From contig NC_134482.1 in NCBI RefSeq assembly GCF_964194025.1, positions 29,202,001-29,266,000 on the forward strand: DNA of 64,000 bases, written 5' to 3'. The notes beneath the pieces were generated by a model. The model was not told the origin of the DNA. It searched no databases and saw nothing but the letters and a program-made list of their open reading frames with translations. This document shows, one piece after another, positions 14,264 to 46,950 of this stretch; the stretch's first letter is position 1; every line of letters begins with the position of its first letter. Made by a program: the position numbers and the translations under genes. This DNA is from Convolutriloba macropyga (taxonomy: Eukaryota).

Positions 14264-14329
14264 GAAAAACCTCCTTTATTGAATCGCTCTATGATGTTGC
14301 CGTTTTTTGACAAGTTTTGTGAACAAAAT

Positions 14330-20300: not shown

Positions 20301-23300
20301 ACATCCATCTGAGCTTTTTTATTGTTTGACCTGACTTTTTTTCAAGAAAAACGCTCTTTCTCTGACTCCAAGTACATAGAACCACCACAACGGTTCCGTA
20401 ACCACGATCTCTAATCATAAATAGTCAGATGAGTTGATTGAAAGGCCTAGATCACGCGAAAAAGTTGATCATAGATTTTTTGTGGTGATAATATAATGGT
20501 TTTTGGTGATAAACTATGTTTATGGCGAAATTCGTAAATGGTCACTTTTCTTGGGCTTCCGATCCTTTCCAAAACCATTCTATAGCAAAACGGCACTTCT
20601 ACCGGGGTTTAAAAAAAGCTTAAAAAATAGAATTAGGGTGCAAAATTTTTTTGCCATAAAACATTTTTTCTCTCGGGCGTAAACAGAAAATTTCATATTG
20701 ACATTACCGGTGATATAGCAGTAAGAAAGCAAATTCTTATAAAAAACGCTGTTTGATGGTTTTTTATTAACAACGCTTCTAACGACTGTGGCTAGTTTCC
20801 TAGGCCCTGATAAACGTCATATAAAAGCCTCCAGTGACATCCATCTGAGCTTTTTTATTGTTTGACCTGACTTTTTTTCAAGAAAAACGCTCTTTCTCTG
20901 ACTCCAAGCACATAGAACCACCACAACGGTTCCGTAACCACGATCTCTAATCATAAGTAGTCAGATGAGTTGAATGACAGGCCTAGATCAGGCGAAAAAG
21001 TTGATCATAGGTTTTTTGTGGTGATAATATAATGGTTTTTGGTGATAAACTATTTTTATGGCGAAATTCGTAAATGGTCACTTTTCTTGGGCTTCCGATC
21101 CTTTCCAAAATCATTCTATAGCAAAACGGCACTTCTACTGGGGTTTAAAAAAAGCTGGAAAAATAAAATTGGGGTGCAAAATTTTTTTGCCATAAAACAC
21201 TTTTTCTCTCGGGCGTAAACAGAAAATTTCATATTGACATTACCGGTGATATAGCAGTAAGAAAGCAAAATCTTATAAAAAACGCTGTTTGATGGTTTTT
21301 TCATTAACAAAGCTTCTAACGACTGTGGCTAGTTTCCTAGGCCCTTATAAACGTCATATCAAAGCCTCCAGTGACATCCATCTGAGCTTTTTTATTGTTT
21401 GACCTGACTTTTTTTTCAAGAAAAACGCTCTTTCTCTGACTCCAAGCTCATAGAACCACCACAACGGTTCCGTAACCACGATCTCTAATCATAGGTAGTC
21501 AGATGAGTTGAATGACAGGCCTAGATCACGCGAAAAAGTTGATCATAGGTTTTTTGCGGTGATAATATAATGGTTTTTGGTGATAAACTATGTTTATGGC
21601 GAAATTCGTAAATGGTCACTTTTCTTGGGCTTCCGATCCTTTCCAAAACCATTCTATAGCAAAACGGCACTTCTACCGGGGTTTAAAAAAGCTGGAAAAA
21701 TAAAATTAGGGTGCAAAATTTTTTTGCCATAAAACATTTTTTCTCTCGGGCGTAAACAGAAAATTTCATATTGACATTACCGGTGATATAGCAGTAAGAA
21801 AGCAAAATCTTATAAAAAACGCTGTTTGATGGTTTTTTATTAACAACGCTTCTAACGACTGTGGCTAGTTTCCTAGGCCCTGATAAACGTCATATAAAAG
21901 CCTCCAGTGACATCCATCTGAGCTTTTTTATTGTTTGACCTGACTTTTTTTTCAAGAAAAACGCTCTTTCTCTGACTCCAAGCACATAGAACCACCACAA
22001 CGGTTCCGTAACCACGATCTCTAATCATAAGTAGTCAGATGAGTTGAATGACAGGCCTAGATCAGGCGAAAAAGTTGATCATAGGTTTTTTGTGGTGATA
22101 ATATAATGGTTTTTGGTGATAAACTATGTTTATGGCGAAATTCGCAATTGGTCACTTTTCTTGGGCTTCCGATCCTTTCCAAAATCATTCTATAGCAAAA
22201 CGGCACTTCTACTGAAGATAACAGAAAACTGGAATAATAAAATTGGTGTGCAAAATTTTTTGCCATAAAACATTTTTTCTCTCTGGCCTAAACAAGAAAT
22301 TTCATATTGACCTTACCGGTGATATAGCAGTAAGAAAACAAAATCTTATAAAAAACGTTGTATGATGATTTTTTTATTAATACAGCTTTTGATGACTGTG
22401 GCTAGTTTGATAGGCCCTGATAAACGTCATATTGAAGCCTCCAGTGACATCCATCTGAGATTTTTTATTGTTTTAACTGATTTTTTTTCAAGAAAAACGC
22501 TGTTTCTCTGACTCCAAGCACGTAGAACCACCACAACGGTTCCGTAACCACGATCTTTATTCAAAAGTAGCCAGATGAGTTGAATGAAAGGCCTAGATCA
22601 AGTGAAAAAGTTGATCATAGTTTTTATGTGGTGATAATATAACGGTTTTTGGTGATATACTATGTTTATGGCGGAATTCGTAATTGTTCACCTTTCTTGG
22701 GCTTCCGATCCTTTCCAAAATGACTCTATAGCCAAACGGCACTTCTACGGGGGTTTAAAAAAAATCTGGAATAATAAAATTGGAGTGCAATTTTTTTGCC
22801 ATAAAACATTTTTTCTCTCGGGCCTAAACACAAAATTTCATGTTGACCTTACCGGTGATGTAGCAGTAAGAAAACAAAATCTGATAAAAAACGTTGCTTC
22901 ATGGATTTTTTTAATATTACGGCATTCAATGACTGTGGCTAGTTTGTTAGGCCCTGATAAACGTCATATCAGGGGCCTCCAGTGACATCAATCTGAGCTT
23001 TTTTTTATTGTTGTATCTGATTTTTTTTCAAGAAAAACGCTGTTTCTCTGACTCCAAGCACATAGAACTACCACAACGGTTCCGTAACCACGATCTCTAT
23101 TCATAAGCAGTCAGATGAGTTGAAAAACAGGCCTAGATTGCGCGAAAAAGTTGACCATAGTTTTTATGTGGTGATAATATAACGGTTTCTGGTGATATAC
23201 AATGTTTATGGCGAAATTCGCAATTGGTCACTTTTCTTGGGCTTCCGATCCTTTCCAAAATCATTCTATAGCAAAACGGCACTTCTACTGAGGATAACAG

Positions 23301-25970
23301 AAAACTGGAATAATAAAATTGGTGTGCAAAATTTTTTGCCATAAAACATTTTTTCTCTCTGGCCTAAACAAGAAATTTCATATTGACCTTACCGGTGATA
23401 TAGCAGTAAGAAAACAAAATCTTATAAAAAACGTTGTATGATGATTTTTTTTATTAAAACAGCTTTTGATGACGGTGGCTAGTTTGATAGGCCCTGATAA
23501 ACGACATATTGAAGCCTCCAGTGACATCCATCTGAACTTTTTTATTGTTTTAACTGATTTTTTTTCAAGAAAAACGCTGTTTCTCTGACTCCAAGCACGT
23601 AGAACCACCACAACGGTTCCGTAACCACGATCTTTTTTCAAAAGTAGCCAGATGAGTTGAATGAAAGGCCTAGATCAAGCGAAAAAGTTGATCATAGTTT
23701 TTATGTGGTGATAATATAACGGTTTTTGGTGATATACTATGTTTATGGCGGAATTCGTAATTGTTCACCTTTCTTGGGCTTCCGATCCTTTCCAAAATGA
23801 CTCTATAGCCAAACCGCACTTCTACGGGGGTTTAAAAAAAAGCTGGAATAATAAAATTGGAGTGCAATTTTTTTGCCATAAAACATTTTTTCTCTCGGGC
23901 CTAAACACAAAATTTCATGTTGACCTTACCGGTGATATAGCAGTAAGAAAACAAAATCTGATAAAAAAACGTTGCTTCATGGATTTTTTTATTATTACGG
24001 CTTTCAATGACTGTGGCTAGTTTGTTAGGCACTGATAAACGTCATATCAGGGGCCTCCAGTGACATCAATCTGAGCTTTTTTTTATTGTTGTATCTGATT
24101 TTTTTTTCAAGAAAAACGCTGTTTCTCTGACTCCAAGCACATAGAACTACCACAACGGTTCCGTAACCACGATCTCTATTCATAAGCAGTCAGATGAGTT
24201 GAAAAACAGGCCTAGATTGCGCGAAAAAGTTGACCATAGTTTTTATGTGGTGATAATATAACGGTTTCTGGTGATATACTATGTTTATGGCGAAATTCGC
24301 AATTGGTCACTTTTCTTGGGCTTCCGATCCTTTCCAAAATCATTCTATAGCAAAACGGCACTTCTACTGAGGATAACAGAAAACTGGAATAATAAAATTG
24401 GTGTGCAAAATTTTTTGCCATAAAACATTTTTTCTCTCTGGCCTAAACAAGAAATTTCATATTGACCTTACCGGTGATATAGCAGTAAGAAAACAAAATC
24501 TTATAAAAAACGTTGTATGATGATTTTTTTATTAATACAGCTTTTGATGACTGTGGCTAGTTTGATAGGCCCTGATAAACGTCATATTGAAGCCTCCAGT
24601 GAGTGACATCCATCTGAGCTTTTTTATTGTTTTAACTGATTTTTTTTCAAGAAAAACGCTGTTTCTCTGACTCCAAGCACGTAGAACCACCACAACGGTT
24701 CCGTAACCACGATCTTTATTCAAAAGTAGCCAGATGAGTTGAATGAAAGGCCTAGATCAAGCGAAAAAGTTGATCATAGTTTTTATGTGGTGATAATATA
24801 ACGGTTTTTGGTGATATACTATGTTTATGGCGGAATTCGTAATTGTTCACCTTTCTTGGGCTTCCGATCCTTTCCAAAATGACTCTATAGCCAAACGGCA
24901 CTTCTACGGGGGTTTAAAAAAAAGCTGGAACAATAAAATTGGAGTGCATTTTTTTTGCCATAAAACATTTTTTCTCTCGGGCCTAAACACAAAATTTCAT
25001 GTTGACCTTACCGGTGATATAGCAGTAAGAAAACAAAATCTGATAAAAAACGTTGCTTCATGGATTTTTTTATTATTACGGCTTTCAATGACTGTGGCTA
25101 GTTTGTTAGGCCCTGATAAACGTCATATCAGGGGCCTCCAATGACATCAATCTGAGCTTTTTTTTATTGTTGTATCTGATTTTTTTTCAAGAAAAACGCT
25201 GTTTCTCTGACTCCAAGCACATAGAACTACCACAACGGTTCCGTAACCACGATCTCTATTCATAAGCAGTCAGATGAGTTGAAAAACAGGCCTAGATTGC
25301 GCGAAAGTTGACCATAGGCTTTTTATGGTGATAATATAACGTTTTTTAGTGATCTACTAAGTTTTTGGCGAAGTTCGTAAATAGTCACATTTCTTGAGCT
25401 TCCAGTCCTTTCCAAAATCATTCTATAGCAAAACTGCACTTCTACTGAGGCTAACAAAAGCTGGAAAACTGAAATGGGGTCCCAAAAATAATTTTTGGCC
25501 TTAAAACAATCATTGTCTCGGGCCTAAACGGAAAATTTCATTTTGACTGTACCGGTGATAAGAATACAAAATATTATTAAAAAAATGTTGTTTGATGGTT
25601 TTCTCACACAAAATAGCTTTCAATGACTGTGGTTAGGTTGTTAGGATCTGATAAACGTCATATCAAAGCCTCCAGTAATATCCATCCAAGCTTTTATTTT
25701 GTTTTGTCTGACTTTTTCCAAGAAAATCACTGCTTCTATGACTCGAAGCGCATGGAATCACAACAAGGGTCCAGTTATTTTAATCGCTAAATATACATCA
25801 ATATCGGATATATATCAGGGGTCTATTAGACCAAAAAAGGTGACCATAAGTTCTTTGTGGCGACAACAGAACGCTTTTTGATGGTATAATATGTACAAGG
25901 CGAAATTCGAAATTGTAACTCTTCTTTAACCTAGGAACCATTCCAAACTCATTCTATGGCAAATCGGCAC
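14330..25970. repeat. AT-rich satellite array, ~537-bp monomer, about 22 copies
   Basis: The marker gaaccaccacaacgg recurs every ~537 bp from ~14471 to ~25223, plus a degenerate copy near 25754. Repeated shadow ORFs confirm the period. Confidence 0.95.
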
Positions 25971-28264
25971 TATTAATTTACCGGCAAGAAGTACCATGTG
26001 TTGTTTTCTTGCGAAAACCATTTTTGGTTGTGCTAATACCGGTGTTTTCAGTTGTCTAACAAAGGAAATTGGCAAAAAACAATGTTCGAAGCGTTTTGTT
26101 TGAGTTATACCGTGACCACTGCTTCATATAATTAAAACTCAATAACATCGATACACAGTGAACAGTAAAAGACCAGTAGAAGTAATTTGTTTCATGATTT
26201 GACTGCATACAAAAGGTTTAAACGTCCAAGTTTTGAAGTTTCGGGAGTTCGGTTTAGTCAGCTCCAAACTCCCTGTTTTCAGGTTTTTCCTGTTTCCGCT
26301 CAATCATGGGTTGGAAAACAGTGTATCTAGCATTTTTTAGACCTCCACTTGGCCACCTAACATGCTGATGATAGCTGATTTGCGAATTTACAATTTATGA
26401 ACTTTTCTTTGATTTTGAACGTTTTTTTTATGCAAAAAGACAAACATTCAGTGAAATTGTAGTGCAGGGTCACGAAGACTTTTGAAAGAGTTGCATAGGT
26501 AGGAGTGACTCTTAGAATGGCCCGGACAACAAAAGTCCAGCCATTGAATTGCGTTGCAAAGGCTGGTATTGGTGATTTCGGGGGTTTTGATGGTACTGGA
26601 TCGGAGAGCAATTTTTTTGCCATAAAACATTTTTTCTCTCGGGCCTAAACACAAAATTTCATGTTGACCTTACCGGTGATATAGCAGTAAGAAAACAAAA
26701 TCTGATAAAAAACGTTGCTTCATGGATTTTTTATTATTACGGCTTTCAATGACTGTGGCTAGTTTGTTAGGCCCTGATAAACGTCATATCAGGGGCCTCC
26801 AGTGACATCAATCTGAGCTTTTTTTTATTGTGGTATCTGATTTTTTTTCAAGAAAAACGCTGTTTCTCTGACTCCAAGCACATAGAACTACCACAACGGT
26901 TCCGTAACCACGATCTCTATTCATAAGCAGTCAGATGAGTTGAAAAACAGGCCTAGATTGCGCGAAAGTTGATCATAGGCTTTTTATGGTGATAATATAA
27001 CGTTTTTTGGTGATCTACTAAGTTTATGGCGAAGTTCGTAAATAGTCACATTTCTTGAGCTTCCAGTCCTTTCCAAAATCATTCTATAGCAAAACTGCAC
27101 TTCTACTGAGGCTAACAAAAGCTGGAAAACTGAAATGGGGTCCCAAAAATAATTTTTGGCCTTAAAACAATCATTGTCTCGGGCCTAAACGGAAAATTTC
27201 ATTTTGACTGTACCGGTGATAAGAATACAAAATATTATTAAAAAAATGTTGTTTGATGGTTTTCTCACACAAAATAGCTTTCAATGACTGTGGTTAGGTT
27301 GTTAGGATCTGATAAACGTCATATCAAAGCCTCCAGTAATATCCATCCAAGCTTTTATTTTGTTTTGTCTGACTTTTTCCAAGAAAATCACTGCTTCTAT
27401 GACTCGAAGCGCATGGAATCACAACAAGGGTCCAGTTATTTTAATCGCTAAATATACATCAATATCGGATATATATCAGGGGTCTATTAGACCAAAAAAG
27501 GTGACCATAAGTTCTTTGTGGCGACAACAGAACGCTTTTTGATGGTATAATATGTACAAGGCGAAATTCGAAATTGTAACTCTTCTTTAACCTAGGAACC
27601 ATTCCAAACTCATTCTATGGCAAATCGGCACTATTAATTTACCGGCAAGAAGTACCATGTGTTGTTTTCTTGTGAAAACCATTTTTGGTTGTGCTAATAC
27701 CGGTGTTTTCAGTTGTCTAACAAAGGAAATTGGCAAAAAACAATGTTCGAAGCGTTTTGTTTGAGTTATACCGTGACCACTGCTTCATATAATTAAAACT
27801 CAATAACATCGATACACAGTGAACAGTAAAAGACCAGTAGAAGTAATTTGTTTCATGATTTGACTGCATACAAAAGGTTTAAACGTCCAAGTTTTGAAGT
27901 TTCGGGAGTTCGGTTTAGTCAGCTCCAAACTCCCTGTTTTCAGGTTTTTCCTGTTTCCGCTCAATCATGGGTTGGAAAACAGTGTATCTAGCATTTTTTA
28001 GACCTCCATTTGGCCACCTAACATGCTGATGATAGCTGATTTGCGAATTTACAATTTATTAACTTTTCTTTGATTTTGAACGTTTTTTTTTATGCAAAAA
28101 GACAAACATTCAGTGAAATTGTAGTGCAGGGTCACGAAGACTTTTGAAAGAGTTGCATAGGTAGGAGTGACTCTTAGAATGGCCCGGACAACAAAAGTCC
28201 AGCCATTGAATTGCGTTGCAAAGGCTGGTATTGGTGATTTCGGGGGTTTTGATGGTACTGGATC
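24941..28264. repeat. Recent ~1661-bp tandem duplication covering the satellite end and adjacent unique DNA
   Basis: Identical ORFs at 25699 and 27360 (offset 1661). At the junction near 26603, ggtactggatcg runs back into satellite sequence. Confidence 0.92.
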
Positions 28265-28739: not shown

Positions 28740-29330
28740 GGACCGCGTATAGGCTTTTGTGAACCAGGGTGTGATTTTTAGCCGGTACATGGGGCGCAAT
28801 TTTCGACCCAAATAGTGGTCTGTACCGAACCTGCGGAGATGGAAAAAGTATGTTAAAAAGGTACTTTTAGTGATGTTTATAGGTTATTTATAACGCCCAC
28901 TATATGTAGTTACTCATGAACCATGGTTGTATGCAGGTTTTCTGGTATCTAGATGGTGTATTTTGCCGGTACAGGGGTCCTAACATCCGACCCTTATAGA
29001 GGGGGTACATAACCTGCGGAGATGAAAAAAGTGTGTTAAAAATGTCTTTTTAGTGTCGTCTATAGGCTATTTATAACCCCTATTATATGTAGTTACTCAT
29101 GAACCATGGTTGTATGTAGGTTTTCGGGGATCTAGATGGTGTATTTTGCCGGTACAGGGGTCCTAACATCCGACCCTAATAGAGGGGTACCTTAGCTGCG
29201 GAGATGAAAAAAATGTGTTAAAAATGTGCTTTTAGTGTCGTCTATAGGCTATTTATAACCCCCATTATATGTAGTTACTCATGAACCATGGTTATATGTA
29301 GGTTTTCGTGGATATAGATGGTGTATTTTG
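28740..29330. repeat. ~182-183-bp tandem repeat, 3-4 copies, with a further degenerate copy near 29560-29710
   Basis: gatggtgtattttg recurs at ~28952, 29135 and 29317. tatatgtagttactcatgaaccatgg occurs three times. Confidence 0.85.
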
Positions 29331-31009
29331 ACTCCATAGGGGGGTGGGGGGTGGTAAGTGGCCTCATTTTGAGCGATGGTACGAAACACCAAACTGTTGA
29401 TTAATATGTGAATAGTGAAGCAAATCTGGTTCTGTTTTATTCACCAGGCTCGTCGTGTATTGTACTACCAAACTGAGGGGGTCGCACATCGACTACTGTT
29501 TGATATTTGGATGGTACTTTGGCCCCTATTTTGGCCTCAAAATTGTCGTATGTACCACAGCGGTGGAGGCGATTGAAATGTGTTTAAAATGTACTTACGG
29601 AGTTGTGTATAGGCTATATAGACCCCCAATTATATGTAGTTTCTGGCGAGCTCAGTTTGTATACACGATTTCGGGCATCAAGATGATGTATTTTGCCTCT
29701 GTATAGCGGTACATGGCCATGTTTGTAGTATGGGGCCAACTCACTGCATTGAAAGCTGTTTGTAAATCGTTTACAGGTGTGTGGTACTCTTTGTAGAGGT
29801 TTGTAATAATGTTTCAAGGGTCCCCTGGGAGTGTCACCCTCAGGGGTGATTTCTCTGATGTTTGACACACGTCATTTTCTTTGATCACATTTGTACTTTG
29901 GGTACTAGTACTGTTCCTTAAAATTTCCATATATCATCTTAGAGCGACCCCATTGTGGCTCTGTTTTTTTTTATTTGAGCCTGTCTAATGATGTGTGTGT
30001 ATACAGATAACAAAAGGGTTGCGTGTAATGTTTCTTGAGAAAGTGTTGAAAAATAACCAAAACTTTGTCCACTTTTTTTATTCAGTCAAAGGAAATTTAG
30101 TGTTCTTCCTTCTGGCTGACTTGTTCTTCACTGTCCCTCCGCTATTAATATTATTATACTAATACTAATGTTGGTAGCGTATAGCTGCTGGCTAGTGAAA
30201 TCCGCCCGGTGTTGGTTTGTTTTGGTTTTGATGTTGTTATCATTTTTATTTTAGTATTTCTATTTCAGTTCTTGTTTGGTTTTGCTGCTGTTGTTCAGCT
30301 CTCTTCTGTCGCCTGCCTTCCTACATTCTATAGGTGAGAGCCCCCTTCTGTTTAGGCTAGCCGGTTAGCAAGGAAAAGATATTTTCGTTTGTTTAGTTGT
30401 GAAAAATATGGATAAGGCCGAAAAGCAAAAAGTTTCCGAAACCCGAAAAAATTATTTAAACCATATTTGTGATTATATAGTGAGCGCATTTAATATTTGT
30501 CCTGCTTTTAGTCCTTCTTCCGTGTGCTAGGAGAGCCTAAATGATAACTCCAAGTAGTTAATAGTGCAAATTTTCTTTTTTCAACGAAAAAATATGGCTT
30601 GACCAAAGATCTTCATTTTTTTCATGTCTCGTAAAACTTATCAAAAAGCAAGTAGTCCATTCTTCTGAGAGTCCCACTTAAAACAGATGTGTCCATTGAG
30701 GTACAGCGGAAGCATCCAATCTGCCTTTGTGTAAAATCTGGACAAATCTTAAAACCAACTTTATCCTATCTAATATACGAGAAATGAAAAACTTGAAAAA
30801 CTTTGGTTAAGAAAATTTTTTTCGTCGAAAAGAAGCGTTTTTGTTATAGTAACAGTTTGGAATTATAGCGAAGTTTTTCCTCGCACACACAAGAAGTACT
30901 ACAGGCGGTATAAGTTTTAAATGTGTTTAGTATATAATATCTTTAAAAAAATGTGCTCTTGTAAAAAAAAAAGTTTAGTTCGGGTTGCGTTCAGAATGGA
31001 ATGAAAATT

Positions 31010-31037
31010 AAAATGCGCTCTGTCAGGGACGCGTTTT
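31010..31037 (+). promoter_or_regulatory. Conserved-loop hairpin, copy 1
   Basis: aaaatgcg-CTCTGTCAGGGA-cgcgtttt (one G.T pair). Confidence 0.65.
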
Positions 31038-31094
31038 GGTTTACATCAAGAACAAAATTTTGAGAGTCATTTCGTTTTCTAGTCTTCACTGCCA

Positions 31095-31835
31095 ATGAGG
31101 TAAGAATTGGGTTCTGTGTTTTATATTTAAATGACTCAAAAGTTTCTTCTCAATTTTAAATTATGCTCGAATTAAACTTTTTGCTCTAATCATGCTCGAA
31201 TCGAAAAATTTTTTAGCCATGAGTCGACTTCCAGAGGCTACAAAAAATCAGCCCGAATGATCGAAAAAGAGGCCGCTGCTCTCAATGTTTCCGACTGCGA
31301 ATTGCCACCCAACTGGTTTTATTTGTTTTACTTCGAAACTGATGATAAATTTAGTAAAATTCCGGCAGATAGTCCAAGGTGGCCTTTGGACTATAAGAAC
31401 TCCCAGAAGGTCTCTCTGATGTACGGAGATCAGGTTGATATTATCTGTTATGCTCATTGAGGAAAAGCATTAGGAGAATTCAAATATCAAGGATATGAAA
31501 AGGATGTCAATAAATACCTGCGTGAATTATGTCAGTCTAACGGCGCTGCTGCGAGGGAGGAAGCTGTCAATATAGGATGCGGTAGCTCTCAGGGCAGCAA
31601 TCGAAATGACAACAATCAAAATGATCGGCCAAGTTGCAGCCCGGAAATTGGTTTACCATCATCGCAAAGCCGACTTGTGATCGATAATGAGGCAGTTGCG
31701 GACGAACCACCCTTCGTTGACGCATTGGTAGAGGATTACTTCGGTCGCGCGGCCAAAAAGTCTAAGAAATCAAAAACCCCAGAAGGAGGAGCAGCTTGTT
31801 CGTCATCAAGCCAGTCGGATGAAGTAAGAATTTAG
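31095..31835 (+). pseudogene. Transposon gene A, 5' part (spliced; one in-frame TGA)
   Basis: Exon ATGAG (31095-31099), GT-AG intron 31100-31216, then one reading frame MSHESTSRGY...QSDE broken only by TGA at 31458-31460. A strong donor GAA|gtaaga at 31824 suggests splicing to the downstream BEN-like exon. Confidence 0.6.
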
Positions 31836-31850
31836 TTCAAAAAATCAAGT

Positions 31851-31880
31851 CTTCATGTGCTCTGACAGGGACACATGAAG
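31851..31880 (+). promoter_or_regulatory. Conserved-loop hairpin, copy 2
   Basis: cttcatgtg-CTCTGACAGGGA-cacatgaag (perfect 9-bp stem). Confidence 0.65.
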
Positions 31881-32055: not shown

Positions 32056-32598
32056 TTGAAAGAGTTCACTTGGGAGCGGTTCCAATTCGTTATGACAAAA
32101 ATTGAGAAAAGGCTGGACGCCGCTACAGATGTGATGCGTTCATTGAAGACCTTTGGGAGGAAAGCCATGGAGGAACTCAACCGGCTTCATGAAAATGCCG
32201 AGCAAAACAGAGATGACCCGATTGAAGAAAACGAACGCTCCTTCGAAGTTGAATCGCTGATGTATAATGGTGTTAATCTCTTGGGATTGGGTGGCAACAC
32301 ACCCCGTGAACGTGCTCTTCTTATTGCTAACAAAATTTGGACCCCCGAGGAAAGGAAAAAATACTGCATTGCTCCAAGGAAATTGCTCATAGGTGAGAGG
32401 GAGCCAGCAGACGAGGAACGAACAGAAGTTTTTCGTAGCGCTTTGATGGGTGTTTTGAACAACGATTTCAATGAGGTGAAATACCGTGATATTCTCAGGT
32501 ACGTAAACCAACAAGGTGTGGATATGCAACGAAAGCGAATGTCAGTTGGAAACGAAAATCGTAATCCTGAAACTGATTCTAGTCAAGAGGACGCTTAA
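32056..32598 (+). CDS. Coiled-coil plus BEN-like domain protein (probably the last exon of gene A)
   Basis: TPRERALLIANKIWTPEER...REPADEERTEVFRSAL...ILRYVNQQGVDMQRKR follows the BEN helical pattern (lF/WT.eE, LDp.r..ir, In.k...rr). The TTG start is not a real eukaryotic start, and the acceptor is unresolved. Confidence 0.7.
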   Translation: MKEFTWERFQFVMTKIEKRLDAATDVMRSLKTFGRKAMEELNRLHENAEQNRDDPIEENERSFEVESLMYNGVNLLGLGGNTPRERALLIANKIWTPEERKKYCIAPRKLLIGEREPADEERTEVFRSALMGVLNNDFNEVKYRDILRYVNQQGVDMQRKRMSVGNENRNPETDSSQEDA

Positions 32599-32623
32599 AA
32601 GCTGTTACAATGAAATACGTGTG

Positions 32624-32647
32624 CTTGTGCTCTGTCAGGGACACAAG
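32624..32647 (+). promoter_or_regulatory. Conserved-loop hairpin, copy 3
   Basis: cttgtg-CTCTGTCAGGGA-cacaag, 25 nt after the stop at 32598. Confidence 0.65.
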
Positions 32648-33127
32648 AACATTTAAAAAACGGCTTGCTTCTGAAAGCGAAAAGTCTTTCTGGATTTTTT
32701 TCTTTTGTTCTATTTTGATGCCAGTTCTTTTGATTTCTTGTTTTATGACTGAAGATTTGAGCTCTCATATTTGTGCTGTTTTATTCAATTGCTGCGTGCC
32801 ATTGGACAAAAGTACAAAAACTTTTCTCATGGGGCTAGTATTCATTTTGATTTTGGGGCTATAATACAAATATGACCTACTTGTTTTGCGGCCAACTTTC
32901 CTATTGTTCTGATGTATGCTTTATTCAATATTTGAGAGGCCACTTAATTAGCGTTTGAATTTTTTGCATGATTCATCTCGCGCATTAATAAAATAATAGC
33001 TTGGCGAACGTTTTTAACAGCTCTGGATCAAAAGTGAAGGCAACTGAATTTGTCGTGCGTGTCTATATAGGAATTTTAGGTTTGCTCAAATTGTGATTTT
33101 TTTCAGAATAAATTGAAAAGTTGAAAA

Positions 33128-33944
33128 ATGCCTGGTCAAAACCAACCCAGGTTTCGCCCGAACAGAAACGCCGTCAATGTTCTTAAGAGAATTGAAGAGG
33201 CACTAAGACAATTAGACATGGCTCAGGTGGATGCAGTCAACTTTTTGCTTTGGGCTGCAAAATCATTGAGAAAAATTGTAAGCTTTTTTTTAAATTGCTT
33301 TCAGTCAAAGTTTGTGGCATTTATATTAGCCCTGTTGGTCTTTTTGTGCTTTTTTTCCTGGACTGATGTTTTGCATGAACGATCGAACATTATGAGCAAT
33401 TGATAAAGCAATCCCCGTGTGCACCCCTCTACTGGATATCCGGCCACGAACCCTTTCGCTTGAAACCTGTCGCTTGAGAGCAATTAAGCTGACCGTAGTT
33501 GGTTACGTTCAAAACTAAAATTATTCTTTTTTGTCATAGAACGTTAAACAGAGTCAAAAACAACGGAAAAACCCGAATAATCGGCTGATGTATAAAAATC
33601 GAAATCTCTTGGCCTACAGTGGTGCAAGCGATGACTACTCAGGGTACGGCAAGTTTTTAACGAGGTGCATCCTATCAAAAAAGGAACGAAAAATAACTTG
33701 CTGGTTTGCACAACGATCGGTCAGGGACGGACGCGTACCAGCCTCTGAGGAAGATGAAAGTTATTTTCGAGGTTTAAATTTTTCGAACTTCAGTTTTTTT
33801 CGGAGTTTTTAATTTTTTTTACTTACGACATAAATTTTAGAAGCAGTCAGACGGTTCTGTGGGGACAGCCTCTATGCCCTGAGACGTGTAAAGGATGCTG
33901 CCAATGCGTACGGCATTCATGAAAGAAAGCAACGGTTCGGCTAA
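33128..33944 (+). CDS. Gene B: three-exon, 161-aa BEN-like paralogue (exons 33128-33277, 33540-33771, 33841-33944)
   Basis: Two GT-AG introns (phase 0 and phase 1) give an uninterrupted ORF. The product aligns with 32056-32598 (LMY...NLL...G, ERK..C, R.PA.EE....FR.A, N..G). AATAAA lies at 34012. Confidence 0.75.
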
Positions 33945-34017
33945 AGCAAAGATGATGCATGAAACATGAACTGAATTACGAAACTGATTTTAGGTTGTTA
34001 AGAAACGAGAAAATAAA

Positions 34018-34039
34018 TGGCGCTCTGACAGGGACGCTA
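34018..34039 (+). promoter_or_regulatory. Conserved-loop hairpin, copy 4
   Basis: tggcg-CTCTGACAGGGA-cgcta (one G.T pair), with AATAAA on both sides. Confidence 0.6.
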
Positions 34040-34220
34040 ATAAAGTTTCTTTTTTGGCTAAGTTACTCCTCTTGTTTCAAAATATAATGTCAATCTAATT
34101 GAATTTTTGGAATATTTTTAATGTCTTGAGGCTTTAAAGAATCTCAGGAAAAATTGGTTTATCCCTCTCCCAATAAAATTCTAGCTTATCTGACTAATTT
34201 AACTATGCTTTTTAAGATTC

Positions 34221-37194: not shown

Positions 37195-37272
37195 GATGAA
37201 GAAACTTTTTTTTTGTTTTGTTATTGAATGAAAGCTTCTGTACGTAATTTGCGTTTAATTAATCACAAAAAA

Positions 37273-37300
37273 TCAAGCTGCGCTGTCAGGGCCAGCTTGG
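37273..37300 (+). promoter_or_regulatory. Conserved-loop hairpin, copy 5
   Basis: tcaagctg-CGCTGTCAGGGC-cagcttgg, ending 7 nt before the SGNH ATG. Confidence 0.6.
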
Positions 37301-37307
37301 GAAAAAA

Positions 37308-37871
37308 ATGTATTCAATCGAAGCGTGTTTTAGTCCATCAATCGTTATAGTCGGGGACAGCAACCTGGTGAGGATTCAAAACGAACTTGAAATTGATGTT
37401 GTTCTCCGGCCCTATAAAATCACTCTTCATTGCAGACCCAGCTTCCGAGCTGCCTTTTTGAACGGCGAAGATGTAGTGTTTTGTGCCAATTTCACCCATT
37501 GCATACTTCTATTAGGAAACAATGACATCTCACAACACCCTAACAAACCTTGGCTGACCCCTGAAACTCCTTTAAAAACTGCTGCTAGGCTGTGTGGCTT
37601 CGCAAAGAGACTACAAGAAAATTCTGTCGAAGTTAAAGTTGTCGGTCTTTTAAATCGGCCAGATACGGAATACGAGCCCATACAACAGACTAATATTTTT
37701 TTTCAAAACTTTATGCAAACTGATTACGTTGGTCCTCGTTATGTGAGGCCCATTCATTTTCTTAAAGAAAACATTCCATATGATTTGGCGCATTTGAATG
37801 AGGACGGCAAAAAGCGAGTGCTCGCTCTGTTCCTCAGTATATTGACCACCAGATTTGAAGTTCACCCCTAG
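37308..37871 (+). CDS. SGNH/GDSL hydrolase-fold protein (187 aa)
   Basis: Block I VIVGDS, block III LLLGNND and block V DLAHLN, in the correct order and spacing. Confidence 0.85.
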   Translation: MYSIEACFSPSIVIVGDSNLVRIQNELEIDVVLRPYKITLHCRPSFRAAFLNGEDVVFCANFTHCILLLGNNDISQHPNKPWLTPETPLKTAARLCGFAKRLQENSVEVKVVGLLNRPDTEYEPIQQTNIFFQNFMQTDYVGPRYVRPIHFLKENIPYDLAHLNEDGKKRVLALFLSILTTRFEVHP

Positions 37872-38330
37872 TGTTCATGTTCTGAAAAGTTATGTTAACG
37901 TAAGAAATTGGTTGTTGATTGATTAGGTGCTCTCTCGGAATGCTAGATCTTAACAATTCAGTTTCTTGAACCAACATTTTTCAAAATTCTTGTTGTCCTA
38001 TAATAAAAGTTTTTGTAAAAAACAAAGAAAAAATAGTTGACAGAAAAAAATAAAACAAAAAAAGCTTCTTTCTCTTTCAATCCTTCTGTTCCTAATATTG
38101 TTTTCAAGAAGAAAGCAAAAAATGAAAACAGTTAAAAACTCAGTAAAAAGCGAAAATAAATGTTTAATTCGAAACATAAAAAACTACCCAAAATTTAATT
38201 TGGTCTTATTACAGAGCGTACTTTAATGAACGAAAATTGAAAATTCTCTTGCTTTCTCAAATATTGTTTCGAAGAGCATGCTGGTTTTGAGCACGGTAGG
38301 AAAAAACCAACTGCAATTTTTAAATGAAAA

Positions 38331-38352
38331 ATGTGCTCTGACAGGGACACAT
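38331..38352 (+). promoter_or_regulatory. Conserved-loop hairpin, copy 6
   Basis: atgtg-CTCTGACAGGGA-cacat. Confidence 0.6.
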
Positions 38353-38679
38353 AGATACTGACAATTGAAATTTTTTAGCTGCAGATAAATGCAAACGACA
38401 AGTACTCAAGTTTTTCCAAAAGTTGGTACAAAACATTAGGTACAGAAAATATTTTAAATTATGCAATAAAAAAAATCTTAAGTTGAAAAATGTTAAGCCA
38501 TTTTTTTGCCGAAGTGCTCTTCAAACTTATCCAATGAGAATGACCAGAGATGATCATAAAGTCTCAATGATAAAAGTTGTGCTGCAGCATTGATATCACG
38601 TAAATTTGCAGAAATGTTCTTGCGCAAGTTTTCAAACTTTTAAAATGCAATACGGTGTTGAAAAAAAAACGATAATAAC

Positions 38680-38711
38680 AATCTGTGTGATCTGGCAGGG
38701 ACACATAGATT
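38680..38711 (+). promoter_or_regulatory. Conserved-loop hairpin, copy 7
   Basis: aatctgtgtg-ATCTGGCAGGGA-cacatagatt (one G.T pair). Confidence 0.6.
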
Positions 38712-38829: not shown

Positions 38830-41800
38830 TCTTCTGCATGGACGTCGCGTCGCGTCTTCGGTTTGGGCGATAAGCTGTGTCGTTCCTCCTTTTCCTGTTT
38901 TCGGGTACTCTTAGTGCCCTCCGTTTTTTGCGCGATGCTTAGGCTTTGCTTTGTTTTGGGCACGTGCTTTGCCCCTGTTTGCTTGCGCCACGTAGGATTA
39001 AGGTTTTGCGTTGCTCTTTGTACCCCCTCCCATCTAAGGTTTTTGGCGCAGGCCTTAAGTGTTGCTTTGCCGGGCTTTGCTTTTGCCCATAGTGTGCTAA
39101 GGTTAGGGTGGGTGGTCTCTCCTTTGCCCGCGCCGTTTTAGGTGCCAGGTTTTTTGCGCTTCCGTTTCGCTTTTCCCTCCCCACTTGGGTTCCGGCGCGG
39201 CCTTTAGGTGTTTCTGGCTGGGCTTTGCTTTGCCCTGGTGTGCTCTGGCTCAGTTTGGGGGGTACCCTTGTGCTGAGGCGCTTGGGATTTCTTTGCTGTT
39301 CTGTGTTGTTCAGTTTTCTCTTTTTCTGCAGGATTCGGTGACACCCGAGGATAAGGAGACAACATGAGGAGGGCCTGGTGAGGTCCAGTTTGGGGGTTGG
39401 CTGGTGGGCGCGAGGGACTCTTCACTTGTGTTTGGTAAGTTCTGCCGCAGCTTTTTTTTGCGCGCTGCTTAGGCTTTGCTTTGTGGGCACGTGCTTTGCC
39501 CTTTCTGCCTGCGCCACTTAGGATTAAGGTTTTGCGTTGCTCTTTGTACCCCCTCCCATCTAGGCTTTTTGGCGCAGGCGTTAGGTGTTGCTTTGCCGGG
39601 CTTTGCTTTTGCCCATAGTGTGCTTAGGTTAGGGTGGGTGGTCTCTCCAGTGCCCGCGCCGATTTAGGAGCTAGGTTTTTCGCGCTTCCGTTTCGCTTTT
39701 CCCTCCCCACTTAGGTTTCGGCGCGGGCTTTAGGTGTTTCTTGCTGCGCTTTGCTTTGCCCTGGTGTGCTTTGGCTCGGTTTGGGGGGGGGGGTACCCTT
39801 GCGCTTATGCGCTTGGGATTTCTTTGCTGTTCTGTGTTCAGTTTTCTCTTTTTCTGCAGGATTCGGTGACACCCGAGGACGAGGAGACAACACGAGGAGG
39901 TCCTGGTGAGGTCCAGTTTGGGGGCTGGCTGGTGGGCACGAGGGACTCTTCACTTCTGTTTGGTAAGTTCTGCCGCAGCTTTTTTTGCGCGCTGCTTAGG
40001 CTTTGCTTTGTGGGCACGTGCTTTGCCCTTTTTGCCTGCGCCACTTAGGATTAAGGTTTTGCGTTGCTCTTTGTACCCCCTCCCATCTAGGCTTTTTGGC
40101 GCAGGCCTTAGGTGTTGCTTTGCTTTTGCCCATAGGGTGCTTAGGTTAGGGTGGGAGGTCTCTCTTTTGCCCGCGCCGATTTAGGAGCTAGGTTTTTCGC
40201 GCTTCCGTTTCGCTTTTCCCTCCCCACTTAGGTTTCGGCGCGGGCTTTAGGTGTTTCTTGCTGGGCTTTGCTTTGCCCTGGTGTGCTTTGGCTGAGTTTG
40301 GGTGGGGGGTACCCTTGCGCTTATGCGCTTGGGATTTCTTTGCTGTTCTGTAATGTTCAGTTTTCTCTTTTTCTGCAGGATTCGGTGACACCCGAGGACG
40401 AGGAGACGACACCCGAGGAGCCCTGGGTGGTGGAGACGACCTTTGGTGTTGGTGGTGGAGTCATCACCCCTTCTGCATGGACTTCGCGTCTTCGGTTTGG
40501 TCGGTAAGCTGTGTCGTTCCCCCCTTTTCCTGTTTTCGGGCACTCTTAGTGCTCCCCGCTTTTTGCGCGCTGCTTAGGCTTTGCTTTGTTTTGGGCACGT
40601 GCTTTGCCCTTTTTGCCTGCGCCACTTAGGATTAAGGTTTTGCGTTGCTCTTTGTACCCCCTCCCATCTAGGCTTTTTGGCGCAGGCCTTAGGTGTTGCT
40701 TTGCCGGGCTTTGCTTTTGCCCATAGGGTGCTTAGGTTAGGGTGGGAGGTCTCTCCTTTGCCCGCGCCGATTTAGGAGCTAGGTTTTTCGCGCTTCCGTT
40801 TCGCTTTTCGCTCCCCACTTAGGTTTCGGCGCGGGCTTTAGGTGTTTCTTGCTGGGCTTTGCTTTGCCCTGGTGTGCTTTGGCTCGGTTTGGGGGGTGGG
40901 GGGGTACCCTTGCGCTTAGGCGCTTGGAATTTCTTTGCTGTTCTGTGTTGTTCAGTTTTCTCTTTTTCTGCAGGATTCGGTGACACCCGAGGACGAGGAG
41001 ACGACACCCGAGGAGCCCTGGGTGGTGGAGACGACCTTTGGTGTTGGTGGTGGAGTCGTCACCCCTTCTGCATGGACTTCGCGTCTTCGGTTTGGTCGGT
41101 AAGCTGTGTCGTTCCCCCCTTTTCCTGTTTTCGGTCACTCTTAGTGCTCCCCGCTTTTTGCGCGCTGCTTAGGCTTTGCTTTGTTTTGGGCACGTGCTTT
41201 GCCCTTTTTGCCTGCGCCACTTAGGATTAAGGTTTTGCGTTGCTCTTTGTACCCCCTCCCATCTAGGCTTTTTGGCGCAGGCCTTAGGTGTTGCTTTGCC
41301 GGGCTTTGCTTTTGCCCATAGGGTGCTTAGGTTAGGGTGGGAGGTCTCTCCTTTGCCCGCGCCGATTTAGGAGCTAGGTTTTTCGCGCTTCCGTTTCGCT
41401 TTTCCCTCCCCACTTAGGTTTCGGCGCGGGCTTTAGGTGTTTCTTGCTGGGCTTTGCTTTGCCCTGGTGTGCTTTGGCTCGGTTTGGGGGGTGGGGGGGT
41501 ACCCTTGCGCTTAGGCGCTGGGAATTTCTTTGCTGTTCTGTGTTGTTCAGTTTTCTCTTTTTCTGCAGGATTCGGTGACACCCGAGGACGAGGAGACGAC
41601 ACCCGAGGAGCCCTGGGTGGTGGAGACAACCTTTGGTGTTGGTGGTGGAGTTGTCACCCCTTCTGCATGGACTTCGCGTCTTCGGTTTGGTCGGTAAGCT
41701 ATGCCGTTCCCCCCCCTTTTCCTGTTTTCGGGCACTCTTAGTGCTCTCCGCTTTTTGCGCGCTGCTTAGGCTTTGCTTTGTTTTGGGCACGTGCTTTGCC

Positions 41801-44800
41801 CTTTTTGCCTGCGCCACTTAGGATTAAGGTTTTGCGTTGCTCCTTGTACCCTCTCCCATCTAGGCTTTTTGGCGCAGGCCTTAGGTGTTGCTTTGCCGGG
41901 CTTTGCTTTTGCCCATAGTGTGCTAAGTTTAGGGTAGGTGGTCTCTCCTTTGCCCGCGCCGATTTAGGAGCTAGGTTTTTTGCGCTTCCGTTTCGCTTTT
42001 CCCTCCCCCCTTAGGTTTCGGCGCGGGCTTTAGCTGTTTCTTGCTGGGCTTTGCTTTGCCCTGGTGTGCTTTGGCTCGGTTTGGGGGGTACCCTTGCGCT
42101 TAGGCGCTTGGGATTTCTTTGCTGTTCTGTGTTGTTCAGTTTTCTCTTTTTCTGCAGGATTCGGTGACACCCGAGGACGAGGAGACGGCACCCGAGGAGC
42201 CCTGGGTGGTGGAGACGACCTTTGGTGTTGGTGGTGGAGTCGTCACCCCTTCTGCATGGACTTCGCGTCTTCGGTTTGGTCGGTAAGCTGTGTCGTTCCC
42301 CCCCCCTTTCCTGTTTTCGGGCACTCTTAGTGCTCCCCGCTTTTTGCGCGCTGCTTAGGCTTTGCTTTGTTTTGGGCACGTGCTTTGCCCTTTTTGCCTG
42401 CGCCACTTAGGATTAAGGTTTTGCGTTGCTCTTTGTACCCCCTCCCATCTAGGCTTTTTGGCGCAGGCCTTAAGTGTTGCTTTGCCGGGCTTTGCTTTTG
42501 CCCATAGTGTGCTTAGGTTAGGGTGGGTGGTCTCTCCTGTGACCGCGCCGATTTAGGAGCTAGGTTTTTCGCGCTTCCGTTTCGCTTTTCCCTCCCCACT
42601 TAGGTTTCGGCGCGGGCTTTAGGTGTTTCTTGCTGGGCTCTGCTGCTTTGCCCTGGTGTGCTTTGGCTCGCTTTGGGGGGGGGGGTTACCCTTGCGCTTA
42701 GGCGCTTGGGATTTCTTTGCTGTTCTGTGTTGTTCAGTTTTCTCTTTTTCTGCAGGATTCGGTGACACCCGAGGACAAGGAGACGACACCCGAGGAGCCC
42801 TGGGTGGTGGAGACGACCTTTGGTGTTGGTGGTGGAGACGTCACCCCTTCTGCATGGACTTCGCGTCTTCGGTTTGGTCGGTAAGCTGTGTCGTTCCCCC
42901 CCTTTTCCTGTTTTCGGGCACTCTTAGTGCTCCCCGCTTTTTTTGCGCGCTGCTTAGGCTTTGCTTTGTTTTGGGCACGTGCTTTGCCCTTTTTGCCTGC
43001 GCCACTTAGGATTAAGGTTTTGCGTTGCTCCTTGTACCCCCTCCCATCTAGGCTTTTTGGCGCAGGCCTTAGGTGTTGCTTTGCCGGGCTTTGCTTTTGC
43101 CCATAGTGTGCTAAGTTTAGGGTAGGTGGTCTCTCCTTTGCCCGCGCCGATTTAGGAGCTAGGTTTTTTGCGCTTCCGTTTCGCTTTTCCCTCCCCCCTT
43201 AGGTTTCGGCGCGGGCTTTAGGTGTTTCTTGCTGGGCTTTGCTTTGCCCTGGTGTGCTTTGGCTCGGTTTGGGGGGGTACCCTTGCGCTTAGGCGATTGG
43301 GATTTCTTTGCTGTTCTGTGTTGTTCAGTTTTCTCTTTTTCTGCAGGATTCGGTGACACCCGAGGACAAGGAGACGACACCCGAGGAGCCCTGGGTGGTG
43401 GAGACGACCTTTGGTGTTGGTGGTGGAGTCGTCACCCCTTCTGCATGGACTTCGCGTCTTCGGTTTGGTCGGTAAGCTGTGTCGTTCCCCCCCCCCTTTT
43501 CCTGTTTTCGGGCACTCTTAGTGCTCCCCGCTTTTTGCGCGCTGCTTAGGCTTTGCTTTGTTTTGGGCACGTGCTTTGCCCTTTTTGCCTGCGCCACTTA
43601 GGATTAAGGTTTTGCGTTGCTCTTTGTACCCCCTCCCATCTAGGCTTTTTGGCGCAGGCCTTAAGTGTTGCTTTGCCGGGCTTTGCTTTTGCCCATAGTG
43701 TGCTTAGGTTAGGGTGGGTGGTCTCTCCTGTGCCCGCGCCGATTTAGGAGCTAGGTTTTTCGCGCTTCCGTTTCGCTTTTCCCTCCCCACTTAGGTTTCG
43801 GCGCGGGCTTTAGGTGTTTCTTGCTGGGCTTTGCTTTGCCCTGGTGTGCTTTGGCTCGGTTTGGGGGGGGGGGTACCCTTGCGCTTAGGCGCTTGGGATT
43901 TCTTTGCTGTTCTGTGTTGTTCAGTTTTTTCTTTTTCTGCATGATTCGGTGACACCCGAGGACAAGGAGACGACACCCGAGGAGCTCTGGGTGGTGGAGA
44001 CGACCTTTGGTGTTGGTGGTGGAGTCGTCACCCCTTCTGCATGGACTTCGCGTCTTCGGTTTGGTCGGTAAGCTGTGTCGTTCCCCCCCCCCTTTTCCTG
44101 TTTTCGGGCACTCTTAGTGCTCCCCGCTTTTTTTGCGCGCTGCTTAGGCTTTGCTTTGTTTTGGGCACGTGCTTTGCCCTTTTTGCCTGCGCCACTTAGG
44201 ATTAAGGTTTTGCGTTGCTCTTTGTACCCCCTCCCATCTAGGCTTTTTGGCGCAGGCCTCAGGTGTTGCTTTGCCGGGCTTTGCTTTTGCCCATAGTGTG
44301 CTTAGGTTAGGGTGGGTGGTCTCTCCTGTGCCCGCGCCGATTTAGGAGCTAGGTTTTTCGCGCTTCCGTTTCGCTTTTCCCTCCCCACTTAGGTTTCGGC
44401 GCGGGATTTAGGTGTTTCTTGCTCGGCTTTGTTTTGCCCTGGTGTGCTTTGGCTCGGTTTAGGGGGGGGGTACCCTTGCGCTTAGGCGCTTGGGACTTCT
44501 TTGCTGTTCTGTGTTGTTCAGTTTTCTCTTTTTCTGCAGGATTCGGTGGTACTCGAGGACGAGGAGACGACACCCGAGGAGCCCTGGGTGGTGGAGACGA
44601 CCTTTGGTGTTGGTGGTGGAGTCGTCACCCCTTCTGCATGGACTTCGCGTCTTCGGTTTGGTCGGTATGCTGTGTCGTCCCCCCCCCCCCTTTTCCTGTT
44701 TTCGAACACTCTTAGTGCTCCCCGCTTATTGCGCGCTGCTTAGGCTTTGCTTTGTTTTGGGCACGTGCTTTGCCCTTTTTGCCTGTGCCACTTAGGATTA

Positions 44801-46950
44801 AGGTTTTGCGTTGCTCTTTGTACCCCCTCCCATCTAGGCTTTTTGGCGCAGGCCTTAAGTGTTGCTTTGCCGGGCTTTGCTTTTGCCCATAGTGTGCTTA
44901 GGTTAGGGTGGGTGGTCTCTCCTGTGCCCGCGCCGATTTAGGAGCTAGGTTTTTCGCGCTTCCGTTTCGCTTTTCCCTACCCACTTAGGTTTCGGCGCGG
45001 GCTTTAGGTGTTTCTTGCTGGGCTTTGCTTTGCCCTGGTGTGCTTTGGCTCGGTTTGGGGGGGTACCCTTGCGCTTAGGCGCTTGGGATTTCTTTGCTGT
45101 TCTGTGTTGTTCAGTTTTCTCTTTTTCTGCATGATTCGGTGACACCCGAGGACAAGGAGACGACACCCGAGGAGCCCTGGGTGGTGGAGACGACCTTTGG
45201 TGTTGGTGGTGGAGTCGTCACCCCTTCTGCATGGACTTCGCGTCTTCGGTTTGGTCGGTAAGCTGTGTCGTTCCCCCCTTTTCCTGTTTTCGGGCACTCT
45301 TAGTGCTCCCCGCTTTTTTTGCGCGCTGCTTAGGCTTTGCTTTGTTTTGGGCACGTGCTTTGCCCTTTTTGCCTGCGCCACTTAGGATTAAGGTTTTGCG
45401 TTGCTCTTTGTACCCCCTCCCATCTAGGCTTTTCGGCGCAGGCCTCAGGTGTTGCTTTGCGGGCTTTGCTTTTGCCCATAGTGTGCTTAGGTTAGGGTGG
45501 GTGGTCTCTCCTGTGCCCGCGCCGATTTAGGAGCTAGGTTTTTCGCGCTTCCGTTTCACTTTTCCCTCCCCACTTTGGTTTCGGCGCGGGATTTAGGTGT
45601 TTCTTGCTCGGCTTTGTTTTGCCCTGGTGTGCTTTGGCTCGGTTTAGGGGGGGGGGTACCCTTGCGCTTAGGCGCTTGGGACTTCTTTGCTGTTCTGTGT
45701 TGTTCAGTTTTCTCTTTTTCTGCAGGATTCGGTGACACCCGAGGACAAGGAGACGACACCCGAGGAGCCCTGGGTGGTGGAGACGACCTTTGGTGTTGGT
45801 GGTGGAGTCGTCACCCCTTCTGCATGGACTTCGCGTCTTCGGTTTGGTCGGTAAGCTGTGTCGTCCCCCCCCCCTTTTCCTGTTTTCGGGCACTCTTAGT
45901 GCTCCCCGCTTATTGCGCGCTGCTTAGGCTTTGCTTTGTTTTGGGCACGTGCTTTGCCCTTTTTGCCTGCGCCACTTAGGATTAAGGTTTTTCGTTGCTC
46001 TTTGTACCCCCTCCCATCTAGGCTTTTTGGCGCAGGCCTTAGGTGTTGCTTTGCCGGGCTTTGCTTTTGCCCATAGTGTGCTTAGGTTAGGGTGGGTGGT
46101 CTCTCCTGTGCCCGCGCCGATTTAGGAGCTAGGTTTTTCGCGCTTCCGTTTCGCTTTTCCCTCCCCACTTAGGTTTCGGCGCGGGCTTTAGGTGTTTCTT
46201 GCTGGGCTTTGCTTTGCCCTGGTGTGCTTTGGCTCGGTTTGGGGGGGGGGGGGTACCCTTGCGCTTAGGCGCTTGGGATTTCTTTGCTGTTCTGTGTTGT
46301 TCAGTTTTCTCTTTTTCTGCAGGATTCGGTGACACCCGAGGACAAGGAGACGACACCCGAGGAGCCCTGGGTGGTGGAGACGACCTTTGGTGTTGGTGGA
46401 GGAGTCGTCACCCCTTCTGCATGGACTTCGCGTCTTCGGTTTGGTCGTTAAGCTGTGTCGTTCCCCCCTTTTCCTGTTTTCGGGCACTCTTAGTGCTCCC
46501 CGCTTTTTGCGCGCTGCTTAGGCTTTGCTTTGTTTTGGGCACGTGCTTTGCCCTTTTTGCCTGCGCCACTTAGGATTAAGGTTTTGCGTTGCTCTTTGTA
46601 CCCCCTCCCATCTAGGCTTTTTGGCGCAGGCCTTAGGTGTTGCTTTGCCGGGCTTTGCTTTTGCCCATAGTGTGCATAGGTTAGGGTGGGGTGGGTGGTC
46701 TCTCCTGTGCCCGCGCCGATTTAGGAGCTAGGTTTTTCGCGCTTCCGTTTCGCTTTTCCCTCCCCACTTAGGTTTCGGCGCGGGCTTTAGGTGTTTCTTG
46801 CTGGGCTTTGCTTTGCCCTGGTGTGCTTTGGCTCGGTTTGGGGGGGGGGTACCCTTGCGCTTAGGCGCTTGGGATTTCCTTGCTGTTCTGTGTTGTTCAC
46901 TTTTTTTTTCTGCAGGATTCGGTGACACCCGAGGACGAGGAGACGACACC
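38830..46950. repeat. GC-rich, strand-skewed satellite array, ~595-bp monomer (first units ~527 bp), about 14 copies
   Basis: The marker gcacgtgctttgccc recurs 14 times from ~38960 to ~46539. The plus strand is G/T-rich and A-poor, with many TTAGG motifs. Confidence 0.95.

Follow-up and report, generated by a model that had tools for sequence, protein, structure and literature searches.

The host element and its gene block

The window analysed here, a stretch of 64,000 nt of Convolutriloba macropyga contig NC_134482.1, contains a mobile element of 33.4 kb that extends from position 14075 to position 47473, ends in CCC..GGG and carries a block of genes on the + strand. NCBI proteins belonging to the same gene family carry the acoel source name Convolutriloba macropyga, and relatives of the element were sought throughout 1.18 Gb of genome sequence. 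The features of the element, in window positions, are as follows:

14075..14263, + strand: left end; terminal inverted repeat from CCCTAG, then 9 clustered CTTGCAAG palindromes
14300..27140 (limits approximate): internal 537-bp satellite array, common to close copies
28768..29330: internal 183-bp tandem repeat
31009..31038, + strand: stem-loop copy 1, upstream of gene A
31217..31823, + strand: first coding exon of gene A; globular N-terminal domain, disordered linker and phase-0 donor
31851..31880, + strand: stem-loop copy 2, in the gene A intron
32062..32598, + strand: last exon of gene A; long helix (likely a coiled coil) and predicted BEN-fold domain
32621..32650, + strand: stem-loop copy 3, after the gene A stop
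33128..33277, + strand: coding exon 1 of gene B; long helix, with a splice acceptor 21 nt 5' of the ATG
33540..33771, + strand: exon 2 of gene B; front part of the BEN-like domain
33841..33944, + strand: exon 3 of gene B; last helices, including the predicted recognition helix, and the best conserved part
34014..34043, + strand: stem-loop copy 4, after the gene B stop and just behind an AATAAA
34221..37194, + strand: SET domain fused to a Tnp2/DUF1258-type transposase
37272..37301, + strand: stem-loop copy 5, a variant form, before gene E
37334..37871, + strand: gene E exon; GDSL/SGNH-like domain behind a phase-2 acceptor
38327..38710, + strand: stem-loop copies 6 and 7, after gene E
39000..46950 (limits approximate): GC-rich, T-skewed internal tandem array
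47310..47473, + strand: right end; 9 clustered CTTGCAAG palindromes, then terminal inverted repeat to CTAGGG

The family is large, with at least 150 genome matches to B exon 2 and at least 150 to A, and from the former we picked 40 loci to span 43–61% identity. The order of the genes (A, B, SET-transposase, E) is fixed among them: 39 of the 40 have A on the upstream side of B, and every one has the SET-transposase and E farther downstream. Ten close copies share ~91–98% identity with the window across the gene block, one of them aligning only to the end of B, and the four elements that could be seen whole measure 21–33 kb. The terminal inverted repeats are short, and ends matching those at 14075 and 47473 are found in other copies. 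A 2-bp target duplication flanks three of the four elements for which both ends were seen (L095, L100 and L101), a small sample, and the flanks of the window copy show no clean target duplication.

In the transposase, residues 477–600 match DUF1258 above the cut-off (E 9e-9) and Transposase_21 below it (E 2.8e-4). The CCC..GGG termini, the 2-bp target duplication and the type of transposase together fit the animal branch of the CACTA transposons, and we conclude that the host belongs to the CACTA/CMC-type DNA transposons of animals; its transposase is fused to a SET domain, and a palindrome lies in its subterminal regions. The same termini, target duplication and Transposase_21/DUF1258-type transposase, along with internal tandem repeats and spliced genes, characterize the SmTRC1-type animal CACTA/EnSpm (CMC) elements; as far as the available part of that description extends (PMC1636069), two BEN-like genes, a SET fusion, a GDSL/SGNH-like gene and a stem-loop restricted to one clade are found in the worm family alone.

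The SET domain (window 34221–34900) stands at the front of the transposase and is kept in 40 of 40 loci. The C-terminal piece of the transposase is read in a different frame, which follows an acceptor-like site near 36850, and a pyrimidine run ending in TAG (window about 36790–36851) precedes it. Since the length of this run varies among close copies, the change of frame is probably an intron rather than a frameshift. Gene E begins behind a phase-2 acceptor in 38 of the 39 rows and has conserved GDS, GNND and DxxH-like blocks; Lipase_GDSL_2 is matched weakly by 7 of 19 members, and the divergence of E between the two main clades is far above that of the other genes. We also considered E as part of a longer fusion protein, for which three unrelated GDSL matches were the only, weak evidence, and we set this aside.

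The octamer CTTGCAAG occurs 19 times in the window, and 18 of these copies lie within the two end clusters (9 + 9); the motif was not found in the window's satellites. Palindrome clusters could be reached at the right end in 22 loci, the stretches fetched for the other 18 containing none, and 20 of the 22 consist of CTTGCAAG, with both main clades represented. In one subfamily (L106 and L107) CTTATAAG takes its place at the right end. This subfamily also has the most divergent B, in which we looked for a diagnostic change accompanying CTTATAAG and found none that could be assigned. The subterminal sequence also includes a 10-mer, TCTTGCAAGA, that shares 8 of 10 bases with the palindrome of the oligonucleotide crystallised with BANP, according to the accessible portion of PMC11472053; we regard this as a lead only.

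Several other repeats and frames were noted in passing. The satellite arrays at 14300–27140 and 39000–46950 travel within the element and differ in length between copies. In another subfamily, two copies have an array of the right-hand type in common, with 96% identity in the alignment. A further repeat family, rich in GCGGTGAA and made up of inverted and short tandem units, occupies 2021–2631, 7747–8201 and 62707–63961; it probably represents the ends of another transposon. Outside the element, at 52986–57127, lie long open frames of 217, 262, 228 and 148 aa with strong AT skew, three of which were compared with Pfam and had no match above the cut-off.

Structure, selection and common origin of genes A and B

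The three exons of gene B, once GT..AG introns of 262 and 69 nt are removed, give a frame of 161 aa. The window by itself offers many GT/AG combinations with long frames, of which this join is one, so that proof of the gene rests on comparison between loci. Intron 2 falls at the same codon position throughout, with GT in 39 and AG in 40 of 40 rows (the window and 39 other loci, the 40th fetched locus having no exon-3 match). Its length ranges from 58 to 350 nt and is not a multiple of three in 30 of the 40; read-through is ruled out, as no row is open. Intron 1 begins with GT in all 22 rows in which exon 1 was found, and AG stands directly 5' of exon 2 in 37 of 40. Over ten subfamily pairs pN is 0.09–0.21 and pS 0.64–0.91, and in two sister subfamilies the NCBI models, which are automatic and annotated as uncharacterized proteins, use both B junctions. 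The first-pass annotation had proposed a 161-aa protein joined from the fragments at 33128 and 33588 through canonical introns, and the conservation of the intron positions across diverged relatives bears this out.

A chance join, or a decayed pseudogene fragment, could be suspected from the many combinations available in the window and from the ten closest copies, among which B has 161 aa in five of the eight resolved (the window included), other lengths in three, and two that could not be resolved. That splice sites, frame and protein are kept despite near-saturated silent divergence, and that the NCBI models have the same junctions, leaves this reading with next to no probability; at the level of the family it is refuted, and individual copies may be dead. 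B is intact in the window copy. We conclude from the pattern of substitutions and splice sites that B is a real spliced gene under purifying selection. Four sequencing runs, present as contigs, gave flat depth across the B introns and no joint at either; these sequences look like DNA. Within intron 1 (window 33276–33539) the read depth is about twenty times that of the rest of the element, and this is likely a piece of a high-copy repeat. We also considered B as an alternative last exon for the first exon of A, which is rejected by an in-frame stop preceding the ATG of B in the window's subfamily; in NCBI models of two other subfamilies B has a short first exon of its own.

Gene A is longer than it had appeared. 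What had been taken for a free-standing open reading frame at 32056–32598 is, from 32062, the last exon of a gene whose first coding exon lies upstream, with a splice acceptor just 5' of its ATG at 31219. The full product is ~380 aa and has an extra N-terminal domain that B lacks in the window's family. A phase-0 AG stands directly before the last exon in 36 of 40 rows, and in two more an AG lies in frame three bases on; three natural proteins of 310–351 aa hold both parts of A in a single chain. In the window this gene is damaged: one nucleotide is deleted near 31241, a TGA interrupts the frame at 31458, and the last-exon acceptor reads AA instead of AG. Where the site could be located in close copies, the TGA is missing (7 of 7) and so is the altered acceptor (8 of 8). 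Across ten subfamily pairs A has pN 0.12–0.31 and pS 0.77–1.02. At the start of A (window 31219–31290 and relatives) a conserved basic motif, (R/K)(R/K)SAR, precedes the N-terminal domain, and we take it to recall the nucleosome-binding motifs of HMGN proteins. In L096–L098, at about 400–600, a second copy of the N-terminal domain lies ~1.1 kb upstream of the gene and has stem-loops of its own.

Several comparisons establish that A and B are homologous, as the four motif pairs quoted in the first-pass annotation, all present in our alignment, had indicated. The pairwise score of 67 was matched by 2 of 20,000 shuffles, and exon 2 alone by 1 of 5,000; exons 1 and 3 of B taken alone against A were not significant in the shuffle test. 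Family profiles of A and B match each other with probability 98.0 (E 2e-13, 75 columns), or 97.5 with exon 2 alone, and each profile recovers all 38 members of the other family. At the DNA level the likeness is restricted to one 34-nt patch (E 0.025), and from such sparse similarity we conclude that the split is old. A tree built from 54 rows unites B in a single group (100/100) with a long stem and places A with three database homologues (97/95). Several subfamily pairings recur on the A and the B side, which together with the single B group implies that the two genes separated before the family radiated. Taken together, the sequence comparisons indicate that A and B are homologues of old divergence, both under purifying selection.

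How the pair arose is less firmly settled. An old duplication retained inside the element had been proposed; its age and the selection on both products stand, and that it took place within the element is left at the strength of the tree, in which sisterhood of A and B has support of 85/83 with no true outgroup, or 80/74 in the tree of 54 rows. The element might instead have taken up two members of one BEN-like subfamily that had diverged beforehand, with no internal duplication. The last helix of B is closer to outside homologues than is that of A, and more columns align (the B profile matches the outside homologues with 98.5 over 94 columns, last helix included, and the A profile with 98.3 over 74), and the modest 85/83 in a tree of this kind would also suit a capture. 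Against it, A and B fall on one side in the best tree and in 88% of bootstrap trees, and they are adjacent, in a single orientation and built on a common plan of helix plus domain. We hold capture to be improbable and a duplication in the ancestor of the whole family to be most likely.

A predicted BEN-type domain

The model of A (pLDDT 79.5) has a long helix at residues 4–48 followed by a compact domain. Compared by VIA with 48,161 chains, its five best matches are all BEN domains, with 82–107 residues aligned and Z of 7.2–9.2 (a value near 9 being moderate for a helical domain): BANP at 9.2 (rmsd 2.5, 92 aligned), BEND6 at 8.8, Bsg25A at 8.1, NACC1 at 8.0 and BEND3 at 7.2. The next match scores 5.5. 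Foldseek likewise ranked BANP first, with probability 1.0 but an E value of 0.04, and sequence identity to the BEN structures is 6–14%. The domain of A is thus predicted, from its modelled structure, to have the BEN fold. In BANP, too, a coiled coil precedes a single BEN domain, according to the part of PMC11472053 available; A and B differ from BANP, BEND6, NACC1, BEND3, Bsg25A/Elba1 and other host BEN proteins in being encoded by a mobile element instead of a host gene and in lying beneath Pfam detection.

For B the assignment is indirect. The model of a full-length natural relative (pLDDT 70.5) has the same order of strands and helices as A. Its 50 best rows in VIA are coiled coils with no BEN domain, and Foldseek places BEN domains at ranks 1, 3, 4, 6 and 8 with probability of at most 0.16 (0.15 at E 1.7 and rmsd 7.7), both searches having used a model whose alignment is shallow over exon 3. 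Of the two BEN-like proteins proposed at first, A is thus predicted by its structure match, and B is BEN-like by homology to A (98, E 2e-13), its own structure search being indecisive.

Pfam BEN (PF10523) left all 30 members of A unmatched, as well as 24 members of B (exon 2) and the full B relatives P0152 and P0153. It appeared below the cut-off in 3 of 26 proteins scanned, all of them distant homologues (14–16 bits against 23.2). Because the cut-off is not reached, we describe A and B as BEN-like proteins outside the Pfam model. A sequence search of the PDB with these proteins returned nothing relevant, and no TnpA-type Pfam family was matched. BEN domains are described as reading the DNA major groove with their last helix, and BANP as oligomerising through a coiled coil and as having been crystallised on a palindrome (PMC11472053, as far as available). 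In the worm family the last helix is present, basic and conserved. Over 20 subfamilies the domain of B has a mean identity of 63% and that of A 49%, and the last helices 77% and 59%; the last helix of A differs between the two clades, whereas the palindrome is the same in both.

Stem-loops of the gene block and the proposed roles of A and B

Seven copies of a 14-nt core with flanking arms are distributed over the window's gene block, all on the sense strand and all noncoding. In 24 loci of the window's clade the core has 137 sense and 6 antisense matches, and all 137 fall outside protein matches; in 17 loci of the second clade neither the core nor a counterpart was found. Among 90 distinct core matches, chosen with the arms disregarded, pairing at arm pairs 2–7 exceeds that of every one of 2,000 shuffles, and an inner pair covaries (T-A, G-C, A-T). 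A set of 30 sequences, hand-picked from good hairpins and so leaning towards structure, folds into a stem, one bulged base, three further pairs and a five-base loop, with 95% paired and two-sided changes in 7 of the 10 pairs. Searched with a tight pattern, the genome gave 202 matches, and with the control 1; among the 100 matches listed, 93 are within 6 kb of an A or B match, and the other 7 are in four places with family genes. Rfam returned 3 weak matches for window 29000–39500, all far below the gathering score. A double-stranded palindrome is disfavoured, as GAAA or GTAA frequently forms the loop and the covariation of the arms includes G-U pairs on the sense strand. Judged by its covariation, this is a strongly covarying, structured element confined to one clade (L081–L103 and the window) of the transposon family.

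A splice acceptor lies a few bases before the ATG of A, B and the transposase in the window, and in many relatives likewise for A and the transposase. Such acceptors would fit a shared leader exon or trans-splicing. One ATG-bearing leader exon for all genes is unsupported, since the acceptor phases before A and the transposase vary, and a literature search on trans-splicing in acoels found nothing specific among the papers it listed.

In the accessible text of PMC2613891, the maize En/Spm element combines a transposase (TnpD) with an accessory DNA-binding protein, TnpA, and has clustered subterminal repeats at both ends; TnpA binds these repeats and is required for transposition. The worm element resembles it in having a transposase, candidate accessory DNA-binding proteins and clustered subterminal repeats at both ends, and differs in that its accessory proteins have a predicted BEN fold, are encoded by two separate genes and would bind the repeats only by our proposal. 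We propose, with a probability of roughly 60%, that an animal CACTA/CMC family has in A and B two homologous accessory genes of old standing, maintained by selection and each encoding a long helix and a predicted BEN-type domain, and that they likely play the part of TnpA by binding the element's own DNA.

In detail, each protein would oligomerise through its own long helix. The short protein B would coat the subterminal CTTGCAAG palindromes and help to pair the ends for the transposase, and since its domain and its last helix are the more conserved, B is a better candidate than A for the reader of the ends. The long protein A may act through its extra N-terminal domain on chromatin or expression, and would probably tether the element to chromatin and connect it with the SET-fused transposase. 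Separate targets for the two proteins, ends for one and satellites for the other, had been suggested; the ends, where the conserved candidate site lies, are retained here as a probable target, and nothing we found supports the satellites. Against a TnpA-like role in general, the palindromes could be read by the transposase itself or by a host factor.

A and B might instead form an obligate heteromer, held together by the long helices and recognising a single asymmetric site, on the model of Elba1 and Elba2 in the fly. The worm pair resembles Drosophila Elba in comprising two divergent single-BEN proteins that might act together, and in Elba both BEN domains are needed at an asymmetric 8-bp site (PMC3510454, as far as its available text goes). 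The two worm genes are neighbours in 39 of 40 loci, purifying selection acts on both, and each encodes a long N-terminal helix. Against these points, the conserved end site is a perfect palindrome, which fits a homo-oligomer better; Elba, in the same source, needs a third, bridging protein; and the last helices of A and B evolve at unlike rates. A complex model of residues 1–52 of the A exon with B exon 1, run without alignments, scored 0.02 against a mark of 0.34, which counts neither for nor against such a complex. We consider an obligate heteromer distinctly unlikely.

The BEN proteins might also regulate the element or counter its silencing, whether at its promoter, at internal repeats or by recruiting SET, and be dispensable for assembly of the ends. 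Known BEN proteins are transcription and chromatin factors (PMC11472053, in the part available), the transposase carries a SET domain and A an extra N-terminal domain. TnpA also regulates the promoter of its own element (PMC1636069, within its accessible text), so that this alternative overlaps with the one we prefer. A subterminal palindrome found throughout the family needs, however, a conserved reader, and it is the last helix of B that is the more conserved; in addition, CTTGCAAG is missing from the satellites of the window, to which that count refers. On balance a purely regulatory role seems rather unlikely to us.

A broader picture, which we offer with considerable doubt, is that of an operon-like cut-and-paste transposon in which the BEN proteins fill the end-binding role of TnpA, one at the ends and the other at chromatin beside the SET-fused transposase, and in which the stem-loops at the gene boundaries would control the cutting or splicing of a long transcript into messages, possibly by way of a protein that the element encodes.

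For B, public annotation already includes sister copies as uncharacterized proteins; the family-wide proof of its structure, the correction of A, the candidate target site and the stem-loop are new here. A full-text literature search on BEN domains and transposons returned no paper on BEN genes in DNA transposons, a result for the texts searched, which does not establish their absence from print. Structure-based surveys have reportedly extended the BEN family to domains of animal transposons; BEN genes in such elements would then be less novel.

The system offers a compact test, with two small proteins and one 8-bp site, and the subfamily of L106 and L107, in which CTTATAAG coincides with the most divergent B, makes with the CTTGCAAG subfamilies a natural pair for binding specificity. 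If B binds the palindromes at the ends, the TnpA counterpart that has been missing from an animal CACTA family would be identified, and BEN domains would join the DNA-binding folds carried by transposons.
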